A stretch of DNA of 64,000 bases from Escherichia phage Bp7: the sequence record NC_019500.1; one strand, written 5' to 3'. The position numbers and the translations under genes were made by a program. Positions 24,488 to 27,798 of this stretch are shown piece by piece. Under the pieces are notes generated by a model that did no database searches, was not told the origin of the DNA, and worked only from the letters and a program-made list of their open reading frames with translations. Numbering within the stretch: the first letter of the stretch is position 1; each line of letters opens with the position of its first letter.

Positions 24488-24770
24488 TTTTGATGGAGCG
24501 GTTAATACCGCTTCCGAACCTGTCCATGTGCTCGTAAACAAACAACAGAACGGTCTTGATATTGAGGCCTTTGTTGAAGCTGAAGGTTGTAGCTATCTCG
24601 AAGCGGCTACCGCATGGTTGGAAGAGAACAGCATCCCTGAAGGTAACTTTGCTCGTTATTTGCCTGCAGGAATTATTGATAAAATTATGAACGAAGCCAT
24701 TGATGATAACTTGCTTCGACCTTCAATGGCTCGAACGCAAAAAACTAATACTCTGGATTTCTTGTTATGA
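24468..24770 (+). CDS. 33: gp33 late-transcription co-activator
   Basis: 100 aa between dsbA and 59; acidic with hydrophobic C-terminal tail. Confidence 0.65.
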   Translation: MTQSLNDFDGAVNTASEPVHVLVNKQQNGLDIEAFVEAEGCSYLEAATAWLEENSIPEGNFARYLPAGIIDKIMNEAIDDNLLRPSMARTQKTNTLDFLL

Positions 24771-25420
24771 TTAAGATTCGCATGCCACCAAACAATAACC
24801 GTATGGTGAACGGCAAAAGTGTATATTCCCTATATTTGATGTTAAAGCATCATTTCAACGCCAAATACGACGTTATCAAATACAACTGGGTCATGCGAAT
24901 CTCTGATACGGCTTATCAAAAACGTCGTGACAAATATTTCTTTGAGAAATTGAGTGATAAATACACTTTGAAAGAGCTTGCTCTTATATTCATGAGTAAC
25001 TTGGTAGCTAACCAAGACGCATGGATTGGCGACATCAGTGATGCTGACGCCTTAGTCTTTTACCGAGAATATATCGGTAGACTTAAAAGAATAAAACAAG
25101 TTTTTGAGGATGATATCAAAAACATTTATTATTTTAGTAAGAAAGTGGAAGTTCAAGCGCTTTCTGAAATTTTTGATTATAATAAAAAAGTTAACTCGAG
25201 CTATATTTTTAAGCTCCTTCAATCGAATGTTATTTCATTCGAAACGTTTATTTTGCTTGATTCATTTATGGATATAATTGATAAGCACGATGAAAAGACT
25301 AACGATTTAGTGTGGTCTAAGTATTCGACTAAATTAAATGCTTACAAAAAAATTCTTATAGTAGATTCTATTGAGGCTCGTAAATTGTTCATTGAAACAA
25401 TTAAGGGTTGTAAATTTTGA
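24767..25420 (+). CDS. 59: gp59 helicase-loading protein
   Basis: 217 aa (same as T4); KSVYSLYLM.K.H.N.KYDVIKYNW.MR.SD.AYQKRRDKYFF.KLS.KY.LKELALIF.SNLVANQDAWIGDISDADALVFYREYIGRLK almost identical to T4 gp59. Confidence 0.9.
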   Translation: MIKIRMPPNNNRMVNGKSVYSLYLMLKHHFNAKYDVIKYNWVMRISDTAYQKRRDKYFFEKLSDKYTLKELALIFMSNLVANQDAWIGDISDADALVFYREYIGRLKRIKQVFEDDIKNIYYFSKKVEVQALSEIFDYNKKVNSSYIFKLLQSNVISFETFILLDSFMDIIDKHDEKTNDLVWSKYSTKLNAYKKILIVDSIEARKLFIETIKGCKF

Positions 25421-26052
25421 ATATAGTTTATAAAATGACTTGGCTTAATCGTCAGGCTAATAATATTAAGCCGTTTTCGTACATAGGTTCTAAAACTAAT
25501 TGTACTTTTGAAAATGGCGTGATTATTGACTGTAAAGGTAAAGAGTATTGGACCTCTTGCGAGCAATCAAGATTTAAAGAGGCCATCGAAGAAGAAAAAC
25601 CTATTGTTGAAATTTTGGCTATAACGCCATTTGATATTGTTATTAATATTGAACGTTCAGAACAATTGGAAGTTCAAGCTAGAGATAATGATGATTATTT
25701 TAATTTGGTTTATGCCGGTGGCGGATTTGGAGTCTTTGGATGCACTCACCCAGCCAAACGTCCTGAAGTTAGAGCCCATATGAAAGCTGCTAACTATATG
25801 AATCAACCCGATTACCGTCCTTGGAAAACTTCTAGAGCAAACCCTTTAGATTGGATGCTTAGTGATATTGCTTATACTAATTATTGTATAATTAATTCTA
25901 GTGGAAGAGCTTGTGGATGGAGGCGTCTCATTAACTCTGGTATAAATGTTAGTGAAACTACATCAAAGAGTATGATTAAACAATTTAATGAGGGTTGGGT
26001 TCCTAATGATGACCCTGAATTCATTAAGTTAAAAATGCTTTATTCGAAGTGA
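25417..26052 (+). CDS. ORF at the segG position; possible degenerate GIY-YIG-type homing endonuclease (start TTG 25417 or ATG 25435)
   Basis: inserted between 59 and 32 where T4 carries segG; N-terminus IVYK...PFSYIGSKT loosely resembles GIY...YIG; overlaps gp59 stop. Confidence 0.4.
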   Translation: MNIVYKMTWLNRQANNIKPFSYIGSKTNCTFENGVIIDCKGKEYWTSCEQSRFKEAIEEEKPIVEILAITPFDIVINIERSEQLEVQARDNDDYFNLVYAGGGFGVFGCTHPAKRPEVRAHMKAANYMNQPDYRPWKTSRANPLDWMLSDIAYTNYCIINSSGRACGWRRLINSGINVSETTSKSMIKQFNEGWVPNDDPEFIKLKMLYSK

Positions 26053-26150
26053 TATATAATTACTTCATCTTCAAAACCTAGTTATCAAGGTAAACGTGAT
26101 AACAACAACTGTTAATAAATTTATTAAATATATCAAATAAGGTAAATAAT

Positions 26151-27062
26151 ATGTCTATGTTTAAACGCCGTAATCCTGCTGAACTTGCTGCTCAACTGTC
26201 TGCAATGAAAGGTGGCTCTTCTTTCTCGTCTGATGACAAATCCGAATGGAAATTGAAAGATGACAATGGCGTAGGAACCGCAGTTATTCGATTCCTTCCT
26301 TCGAAAAACGAAGCTAATCCATCCCCATTCGTTAAGCTTGTTAACCATGGTTTTAAGAAAAATGGTCAGTGGTATATCGAATCATGTACGTCTACTCATG
26401 GTGATTTCGATTCATGTCCTGTATGTAAATACATGAACCAGAATGATACCTTTAATACTAATAATGCCGAATACAAACTGATGAAACGTAAAACTTCCTT
26501 CTGGGCTAACATCCTTGTTATTAAGGATAGTGCAGTGCCTGCTAACGAAGGTAAAGTGTTTAAATTCCGTTTCGGTCAGAAAATTATGGATAAAATCAAC
26601 CAGATGGTTGAAGTTGATACTGATATTGGTGAAGTGCCGGTTGACGTAACATGTCCGTTTGATGGTGCGAACTTCGTACTGAAATCTAAGAAAGTTGGCG
26701 ACTTCAAAAACTACGACGATTCCAAATTCATGGGTCAGTCTGAAATTCCTAACATCAATGATGAAGCTTACCAAGCTAAATTGATGGAAGAAATGCACGA
26801 CCTTTCTAAACTGCTCGATTTCAAATCATTCGAAACTAACGAAGCCAAGTTTAAGAAAGTTGTTGGTACAGCTGCTCTTGGTGGTGCTGCCGCTAAAGCT
26901 TCTGCTGCCGCTGATAAGATTGGTGATGACCTGGACGCATTCAGTGCAGACCTTGATGCATATGATTCCAAACCGTCTACACCTGCTCGTTCCACCACTC
27001 CTGAGCCGTCAGTAAGTCCTTCTGATGACGATGGTCTGGACGACCTGTTAGCTGGTCTATAA
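26151..27062 (+). CDS. 32: gp32 single-stranded DNA-binding protein
   Basis: 303 aa; [65 protein letters not shown], acidic C-terminal tail. Confidence 0.9.
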
Positions 27063-27143: not shown

Positions 27144-27173
27144 AGACCTTATCAACTACATGAGGAAATAAAA

Positions 27174-27536
27174 ATGGAAACTGGTAAAACTTACGCATTA
27201 GACCCTTCTTCTAAAAGAAAATTCATTGAGGGTAGTCCTGACGATAACTCACGTATGGTCAAACTGATGGAACAACACGGTGGTTCCTTTAAAGTCCTGG
27301 ATATGTGTTATATCGACGGTGATTATTTTGTTGAAAAAGTTGAAATGAAAGACGGTACTATCTTAGATAGCCTAGATAATGCTGATGAATATTTTGAACT
27401 CGCTGAATGGGAATTCAAACACTTCATAGAAGTAGATGATACCCCTGTAATAGATATCCAAACCATTCATGTACAAGTCAATCATAAAAATGCGGCAGAA
27501 GTTGTTGCCTTGATTAAAGCTACCTTTGGAATTTAA
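27174..27536 (+). CDS. hypothetical protein (120 aa; frd.3 position)
   Basis: ORF after early promoter and SD gaggaaa. Confidence 0.5.
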   Translation: METGKTYALDPSSKRKFIEGSPDDNSRMVKLMEQHGGSFKVLDMCYIDGDYFVEKVEMKDGTILDSLDNADEYFELAEWEFKHFIEVDDTPVIDIQTIHVQVNHKNAAEVVALIKATFGI

Positions 27537-27798
27537 CATGACTAAAGATGATTTCCTGGATGCAGTAGAAAAAGCCAGCGAACAATTCGAAGTTATGGGT
27601 GTACGAGTCCATAAAGACAGAAATTACGGGCTCGATATCCAAACGTATTCATTATGGCTTGTAGGTGAACATAGTCTTGTAACCACCTTAGTTATGGGTG
27701 TTGATGCACAACCTTTACTGGTTAAATTCAGAAGTATGGAAAAAGCTACCAAAGAAATGATTAAACTTGGTAAATGGCTCGATAAAATTCAAAAATAA
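27526..27798 (+). CDS. hypothetical protein (about 87-90 aa; frd.2 position)
   Basis: overlaps upstream stop; alternative ATG 27538. Confidence 0.45.
   Translation: MEFNMTKDDFLDAVEKASEQFEVMGVRVHKDRNYGLDIQTYSLWLVGEHSLVTTLVMGVDAQPLLVKFRSMEKATKEMIKLGKWLDKIQK

Follow-up and report, generated by a model that had tools for sequence, protein, structure and literature searches.

The open reading frame at positions 25417..26052 (+ strand; 211 aa, running from a TTG to the TGA stop codon at 26050-26052) of Escherichia phage Bp7 (NC_019500.1, genus Dhakavirus, Straboviridae) very probably encodes a functional SegG-family protein, a free-standing GIY-YIG homing endonuclease that on sequence comparison is the Dhakavirus orthologue of T4 SegG (gp32.1). 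It lies in the 64,000 nucleotide stretch of this genome that we analysed (the window), between gene 59 (24767-25420, +; Pfam T4_Gp59_N and T4_Gp59_C, E 4e-47 and 4e-38, respectively) and gene 32 (26151-27062, +; Pfam gp32, E 1e-51). The orientation and neighbours of the gene (59-segG-32) are the same in T4 and RB3, where segG is likewise described between 59 and 32 (PMC2988022). The initial annotation had assigned the ORF to this slot from the position of T4 segG, and both the Pfam identities of the flanking genes and the T4/RB3 gene order bear this out; the overlap it described with the gp59 stop is also present, the TTG occupying 25417-25419 and the TGA 25418-25420. The window protein is 59% identical to T4 SegG over 211 aa (E 4e-89) and matches the 'homing endonuclease' family PHROG 7504 along the whole profile (positions 1-210 of 210; E 9e-114). 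The 59-segG-32 stretch is 98-99.4% identical to those of vB_EcoM_FB, PSD2002, IME540, LHE83, MX01 and AnYang, and a tblastn search with the window protein matched 267 phage records, many of them labelled segG, while the VR5 orthologue is labelled 'similar to bacteriophage T4 SegG'. The kind of element is already known, as a 100% identical 211-aa protein from phage PSD2002 is publicly annotated in GenBank as 'homing endonuclease'.

The protein divides into a predicted N-terminal catalytic domain with a SegG-type GIY-YIG fold (aa 1-97; 25417..25707, +), in which Y5, R12, Y22-I-G24-S-K26, Y44, S47, E79 and N96 are conserved, a linker (aa ~98-139, GGGFGVFGCTHPAKRPEVRAHMKAANYMNQPDYRPWKTSRAN; 25708..25833, +) modelled with low confidence (pLDDT 43-67), and a C-terminal helical domain that is a putative helix-turn-helix DNA-binding unit in the model (aa ~140-211; 25834..26049, +). 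The N-terminus, MNIVYKMTWLNRQANNIKPFSYIGSK, has the same motif layout as that of T4 SegG, MNIVYWFTFEDRVKNKTPPYYYIGSK, with I3-V4-Y5 and Y22-I23-G24 present as the GIY and YIG motifs. A loose fit to the GIY-(10)-YIG spacing had been remarked on from the sequence, and correctly so, since IVY (3-5) and YIG (22-24) are separated by 16 residues, counted from Y5 to Y22, instead of the canonical 10-11. This same gap is found in the active T4 SegG, however, so that the description of the signature as degenerate does not hold: by these comparisons the 16-residue spacing is the normal form of the SegG family and not a degeneration. The extra segment between the motifs contains a short predicted helix (aa 10-14) bearing the invariant R12. 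Exhaustive searching with a profile gave 233 cluster representatives that contain a SegG N-terminal domain (E <= 1e-3); in most of them the similarity is confined to the first ~100 residues and the C-terminal regions vary. Across 41 divergent N-terminal domains Y5, R12, P19, Y22, G24, K26, Y44, S47, E79 and N96 are invariant. NUMOD3 motifs occur in the linker region of 16 of 28 sampled distant relatives, two of the 28 match PF19835 SegE_GIY-YIG weakly, and a Pfam search of the window protein revealed no NUMOD motifs.

The structural model is consistent with this assignment. An AlphaFold prediction from an 11-sequence alignment (mean pLDDT 82) shows an alpha/beta domain at aa 1-97, the low-confidence linker, and the helical C-terminal domain, which in structure searches resembles helix-turn-helix DNA binders. 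The top Foldseek match in the PDB, although weak, is the I-TevI catalytic domain (1LN0), and structure matches in BFVD are to SegG, NUMOD and GIY-YIG proteins. A GIY-YIG alpha/beta fold is thus predicted for window SegG, and the structure-prediction check proposed in the initial annotation gave this fold, with homology to a homing endonuclease family and not to a non-nuclease one. Alignment by hhalign of the full-length SegG profile with I-TevI is weak (E 0.07) and places E79 on E75 and N96 on N90, the catalytic Glu and structural Asn of I-TevI; in the same weak alignment THPAKRPE of the linker falls on I-TevI THPLKEE, and the linker is matched to that of I-TevI (FGDTCSTHPLKEE...). An N-terminal-only profile gave a 12-column match to I-TevI (K-x-Y-x-G-S-S/KVYVGS) that is meaningless and was discarded.

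One canonical element of the active site, the conserved Arg (I-TevI R27) carried on helix alpha-1, has no obvious counterpart in the window SegG model. The stretch from YIGSK to residue 50 is modelled without a helix, and at the position of I-TevI helix alpha-1 there is instead a beta-hairpin (aa 30-37). Candidate substitutes for R27 are the invariant R12 and K26, and R52, which is kept only among close SegG relatives. A tentative suggestion from the model, which we consider possible and no better than that, is that the SegG clade (>200 cluster representatives) is a distinct active-site variant of the GIY-YIG enzymes, in which the beta-hairpin replaces helix alpha-1 and the essential Arg is R12, carried on a beta1-beta2 loop that is 5-6 residues longer. 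Were this true, it would explain why every GIY-YIG sequence model misses SegG.

The segG ORF is intact in all eight near-identical genomes and in VR5, ZX14, RB3 and T4. Nei-Gojobori dN/dS for the window gene is 0.11 against VR5, 0.16 against ZX14 and 0.11 against RB3, with values of 0.09-0.2 in the N- and C-terminal halves alike, and on these sequence comparisons segG is under purifying selection. This bears on the view that the gene is an inactive or decaying seg remnant, kept only for gene 32 promoters embedded in or adjoining it, which we consider very unlikely. Such a view would draw on the non-canonical appearance of the GIY-YIG motif, the missing Pfam match, a frameshifted segG in one metagenomic Tequatrovirus contig (L047), and the promoter elements themselves, namely a gene 32 middle promoter that extends over the 3' end of segG and a late-promoter-like site within the gene; that embedded promoters favour segG retention has been argued (PMC2988022). 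But promoter-driven retention would leave the protein sequence unconstrained, which is not what is seen in either half, and the putative catalytic residues are all intact and identical to those of the active T4 SegG. In addition, the middle promoter takes up just the far 3' end of the gene and would survive the loss of most of the ORF unharmed, and an imported tract and an immunity-type allele (both described below) indicate past homing. The initial proposal of a divergent or decaying seg-type endonuclease consequently stands as to the type of enzyme and not as to decay.

The promoter elements are matches to consensus sequences. The late-promoter-like TATAAATG (25941..25948, +) has 7/8 bases of the T4 late-promoter consensus and lies in codons homologous to those of T4 segG that contain TATAAATA (locus L009, position 1786), the T4 codons reading G-N-I-N-I and the window codons S-G-I-N-V; the exact T4 late promoter TATAAATA is absent from the window ORF. 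The putative MotA-type middle promoter of gene 32 (26036..26060, +) has a MotA box TGCTTTA at 26036-26042, a 12 nt spacer and a -10 element TATAAT at 26055-26060, and takes in the segG stop together with the five codons before it. Its MotA box aligns with TGCTTCA of QL01, which directly follows the gene 59 stop and is itself followed by 12 nt and TAATAT, and it marks the 3' edge of the insertion. These putative embedded elements would agree with the statement in PMC2988022 that middle and late promoters of gene 32 are within T4 segG. Beginning 29 nt after the segG stop is a hairpin, GTTATCA-N9-TGATAAC (26081..26103, +), which by folding and comparison with T4 appears to correspond to stem 1 (GCTATGA-N9-TCATAGC) of the pseudoknot that forms the translational operator of T4 gene 32, a structure that overlaps the segG 3' end in T4 according to PMC535899. 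In QL01 and NC-G the intergenic sequence differs and the hairpin is absent. Its designation as an operator derives from T4 similarity, since the RNA fold of the intergenic region is no better than shuffles (z -0.64) and an Rfam scan of 25300-26300 found nothing. A scan for sigma-70 promoters and terminators was below shuffle expectation.

The translation start is likely TTG 25417, judging from the surrounding sequence. The initial annotation saw no clean ATG with a Shine-Dalgarno sequence, and it is correct that the ORF opens with TTG and that the next in-frame ATG is at 25435; however, a Shine-Dalgarno-like AAGGG (25403..25407, +) lies 9 nt upstream of the TTG, within the last codons of gene 59. 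The TTG overlaps the gene 59 TGA as TTTGA (25417..25420, +), an arrangement which suggests translational coupling of segG to gene 59, so that initiation at TTG 25417 would use AAGGG as ribosome-binding site and be coupled to gene 59 termination. At the Shine-Dalgarno position AAGGG, AAGAG or AAAGG is found in the segG carriers (window, MX01, VR5, NC-G, 04086 and ZX14) and AAATCT in the segG-less QL01 and T4-type RB3, and the gp59 end changes with it (...KSCK vs ...KGCK). The aligned start codon is ATG in T4 and RB3 and TTG in the window, MNIVY is invariant, and the N-I-V-Y codons vary synonymously only (AAT/AAC, ATA/ATT, GTT/GTA/GTC).

Initiation at ATG 25435 would give a 205-aa protein without Tyr5 of IVY, maybe a non-nuclease DNA-binding protein. 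ATG is the commonest start codon, this one was chosen in RefSeq for the MX01 (NC_031934, 205 aa) and VR5 (NC_028881, 203 aa) orthologues, and the cluster representative P0002 begins at the same Met. Against these points, there is no purine-rich ribosome-binding element before ATG 25435 (upstream sequence TATAGTTTATAAA), the equivalent Met is absent from ZX14, NC-G, 04086 and T4, with ZX14 having no downstream ATG, and the T4 ATG sits exactly at the position of the window TTG. The upstream NIVY codons are also kept by synonymous changes, Y5 is invariant in the 41 relatives, and the GenBank PSD2002 entry uses the 211-aa form. We consider the internal start very unlikely, and on the same sequence grounds the RefSeq starts of MX01 and VR5 are probably six codons too late, removing the catalytic Tyr.

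Searches of the window protein against Pfam and NCBIfam matched no family. PF01541, the profile proposed for checking in the initial annotation, and related Pfam models, with a threshold as loose as E <= 10, gave no match to the window protein or to its counterparts in RB3, VR5 and ZX14, and sequence searches of Pfam, NCBIfam and the PDB with the single protein or with profiles of 4, 12 and 41 sequences yielded no GIY-YIG link. We reject these misses as evidence against a GIY-YIG fold: because T4 SegG fails alike, the T4-type protein of RB3 included, the PF01541 result reflects a limit of the models. The missing Pfam and NCBIfam matches could have favoured the initial suggestion of an unrelated cargo gene lying by chance in the 59/32 slot, but this is refuted, with next to no probability left to it, by the full-length identity to T4 SegG, the PHROG 7504 match and the GIY-YIG fold match.

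Within Dhakavirus segG has a patchy distribution, ten records having this allele, three a second allele, and ~34 an empty site. In the ~34 segG-less records (QL01, JS98, JS10, IME08, WG01 etc.) the ~650 bp insert is absent, leaving genes 59 and 32 ~90 nt apart with no ORF between, and alignment places the insert directly after the gene 59 stop and before the MotA box. Comparison with QL01, JS98 and IME08 reveals that segG lies in a diverged, apparently imported tract of ~1.1 kb (~25279..26399, its right edge at 26399 being the last mismatch to QL01), which extends from ~140 nt before the end of gene 59 through segG and the intergenic operator to ~250 nt into gene 32. In the flanks of segG within this tract there are 5-13 mismatches per 50 nt, mostly synonymous, vs 0-2 per 50 nt outside it (genes 33, 59 and 32). 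From this pattern the tract looks like a co-conversion tract from a more distant donor. MX01 has the segG and gene 32 side of the window with a different gene 59 end, and phage 04086 has the window intergenic region with the other endonuclease allele; these combinations indicate that the ends of the tract differ among genomes.

According to three papers (PMC2988022, with its Table 1, PMC2330249 and PMC535899, all citing Liu et al. 2003), T4 SegG has been shown by experiment to be an active GIY-YIG homing endonuclease, and it excludes the gene 32 of T2 through homing that starts from a cleavage site at a distance. As a positive control we compared T4 with T2, in which gene 32 mismatches are clustered, five of them within 22 bp at T4 gene 32 nt 222-243. 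The candidate SegG recognition and immunity region in the window is at 26375..26400 (+) of gene 32, where codon 78 (26382-26384) is TCA, encoding Ser in place of the near-invariant Asn (WYIEN) of gp32. Around this codon JS98 or QL01 (Asn) read ...TACATTGAAAACTGTACG... and the window (Ser) reads ...TATATCGAATCATGTACG..., and the codon following TAT-ATY-GAA encodes Thr in T4 and RB3 (ACA) and in ZX14 (ACG), Ser in the window and VR5 (TCA), and Asn in T2 (AAT) and in QL01, JS98, IME08 and NC-G (AAC). From the segG stop to the candidate site, downstream, is 330 bp, in keeping with the 'distant cleavage site' published for gene 32. Liu et al. in 2003 reportedly located T4 SegG cleavage ~332 bp from the insertion site, a figure that agrees inexactly with the T4 coordinates derived here.

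Additional gp32 loci were taken from IMG/VR (n=113), and all loci were classed by local tblastn. Thr or Ser is present in 8/8 distinct genomes with a T4-type or type-1 segG, from three genera (one copy, the L047 gene, is frameshifted), and Asn (WYIEN) in ~108 of the ~115 loci without such a segG, down to 32% gp32 identity, six distant loci having Lys, Asp or Glu. Thr occurs among the loci without segG only in L049, a T2-like, segG-less locus that differs from T2 in a short patch at nt 225-231, and this patch fits either repair without acquisition of segG or selection for resistance. For L049 the comparison with T2 alone was used, as the ungapped alignment with T4 lost register after nt 52. A Fisher test of segG against Ser/Thr at codon 78, uncorrected for phylogeny, gives p ~2e-11. 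We regard the association as suggestive, because codon 78 travels in the segG-linked tract, so that linkage could produce it, and because the test ignores phylogeny. Taking the sequences as they stand, Ser at codon 78 looks like a co-converted target-site immunity allele, and segG carriage may force Asn to Ser/Thr at a near-invariant residue of the essential gp32.

In the mechanism we propose for the window gene, SegG would, during co-infection with a segG-less relative, make a double-strand break in that phage's gene 32 near the WYIEN-C codons, ~330 bp downstream of segG. With the segG+ genome as template for repair, the 5' part of gene 32 and the intergenic operator would be co-converted, in many cases along with segG itself. 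Ser78 in the carrier's own gene 32 probably protects against self-cleavage, and the overlap with the gene 32 middle promoter, together with a possible internal late promoter, would disfavour segG deletion.

With its sharp-edged imported tract, two competing alleles in one slot and a single gp32 codon change, the segG locus looks like a clear natural case of intronless homing in a phage other than T4. It leaves the present picture of homing endonucleases unchanged, and its relevance is chiefly to annotation, as a bona fide SegG-type homing endonuclease gene. Neither Pfam nor NCBIfam offers a model that picks up the SegG-type nuclease domain, with the result that hundreds of such genes go unnamed. 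Mildly new are this want of a curated SegG-type model, the probable RefSeq start misannotation, the possibility that the catalytic Arg has been relocated, the presence in the slot of a second SegG-like allele and the gp32 Asn-to-Ser/Thr change that tracks segG across genera.

Among known systems, SegA-F of T4 and the NUMOD3 GIY-YIG endonucleases are likewise free-standing modular homing endonucleases located between conserved phage genes, and distant relatives of the window N-terminal domain link to them by carrying NUMOD3 or, in two cases, by weakly matching the Pfam SegE_GIY-YIG family. Unlike them, the window protein is missed by every NUMOD and GIY-YIG model in Pfam, and its N-terminal domain is of a distinct, SegG-type subfamily. 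I-TevI of T4 (catalytic domain, PDB 1LN0) differs from window SegG in several respects. Identity is ~15% with no significant sequence-profile match, I-TevI has 10 residues between its Tyr motifs and window SegG 16, and helix alpha-1 with R27 in the former is a predicted beta-hairpin (aa 30-37) in the latter. Window SegG also has no zinc finger and is free-standing, whereas I-TevI is intron-encoded, and the target proposed for window SegG is hundreds of bp from its gene.

The second SegG-like allele (NC-G QBP35582.1, 04086 and LQ5) shares with window SegG the slot, the TTG overlapping the gene 59 stop and the Shine-Dalgarno sequence. The first ~57 aa are ~58% identical and a C-terminal MIxxFxxGWxP is common to both, but overall identity is 30%. 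The view that the C-terminal half of the NC-G/04086 protein is unrelated to window SegG was rejected, as BLASTP finds weak homology over the full length at this 30% identity. Genomes with the second allele retain Asn78 in gp32 together with a gene 32 5' haplotype of QL01 type, and for this reason it probably has a different target or history from window SegG.

The closest parallel is T4 SegG itself, with which the window gene shares slot, orientation, length (211 aa vs 210 aa in T4), 59% identity and the MNIVY...YIGSK layout, as well as an overlap with gene 32 promoter elements, putative in the window, and Thr or Ser in place of Asn at the same gp32 codon. The window gene differs in belonging to the genus Dhakavirus. 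The T4 ATG lies one base after the gene 59 stop, whereas the window TTG overlaps that stop; the T4 ORF runs into the pseudoknot, whereas that of the window ends in the spacer between MotA box and -10 element, 29 nt before the operator hairpin; and the T4 middle promoter is mid-gene (L009 position 1428), whereas that of the window is at the 3' edge. Finally, at the immunity-type codon of gp32 T4 has Thr (ACA) and the window Ser (TCA).

The gap between genes 59 and 32 is filled in some other Dhakaviruses (NC-G, 04086 and LQ5) by a second SegG-like gene, only distantly related to the segG of the window (type 1), which has orthologues in MX01 and VR5. This type-2 gene lies at L006:1151-1780 in NC-G, in the same 59/32 slot in LQ5, and at about 1150-1780 of L007 in 04086; in the 04086 record the ORF is entirely without annotation. 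Its product is 30% identical overall to the window SegG, rising to about 58% across the first 57 aa, and like the window segG it starts at a TTG overlapping the gene 59 stop. In the type-2 genomes codon 78 of gp32, the candidate immunity site, stays Asn and the 5' haplotype of gene 32 is of the QL01 type. Across a single genus, then, the 59/32 slot occurs in three states, holding no endonuclease gene, the type-1 gene or the type-2 gene.

At window 25403-25408 the gene 59 codons for K-G read AAGGGT in the segG-carrying Dhakaviruses, whose gp59 ends ...IKGCKF, and the same codons read AAATCT in the segG-less QL01 and the T4-type RB3, with gp59 ending ...KSCK. The change that makes the putative segG ribosome-binding site thus alters a residue of gp59 as well. 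The start itself is variously annotated. RefSeq begins the orthologues of MX01 (NC_031934, L001:3019-3636, 205 aa) and VR5 (NC_028881, L003:2019-2630, 203 aa) at an internal ATG, which drops the conserved MNIVY segment and with it the putative catalytic Tyr5; the GenBank annotation of PSD2002 has the 211-aa form with the TTG start.

The segG-32 intergenic region (window 26053-26150), to which the T4-like operator hairpin at 26081-26103 belongs, differs in type from that of the segG-less Dhakaviruses (L005:1155-1243). Phage 04086 has this window-type region too, but NC-G does not. The endonuclease cassette therefore appears to carry the gene 32 translational operator along. A further mosaic boundary lies immediately downstream of gene 32, at window 27170-27560, which contains a frd.2-like ORF (27174-27536). 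Here divergence from QL01, IME08, 04086 and even MX01, nearly identical to the window otherwise, jumps to 16-27 mismatches per 50 nt, but against JS98, VR5 and NC-G it is only 4-16. A small patch in the 5' part of gene 59 (window 24820-24870), nearly identical on either side, has 7-10 mismatches per 50 nt against all compared Dhakaviruses, MX01 included.

Two further observations concern IMG/VR loci. The T4-type segG of UViG_3300045988_128797 (L047:1810-2470) is frameshifted past about residue 55, where the frame switches and the original frame then has several stops, the mark of either a gene in decay or a mistake in the assembly. UViG_2974787500 (L049:2380-2900) is a T2-like Tequatrovirus with no segG and a T2-type intergenic region, whose gene 32 carries the T4-type Thr codon (ACA) inside a short patch (nt 225-231). 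The patch may stem from co-conversion in which segG itself was not acquired, or the codon may be an allele that confers resistance.
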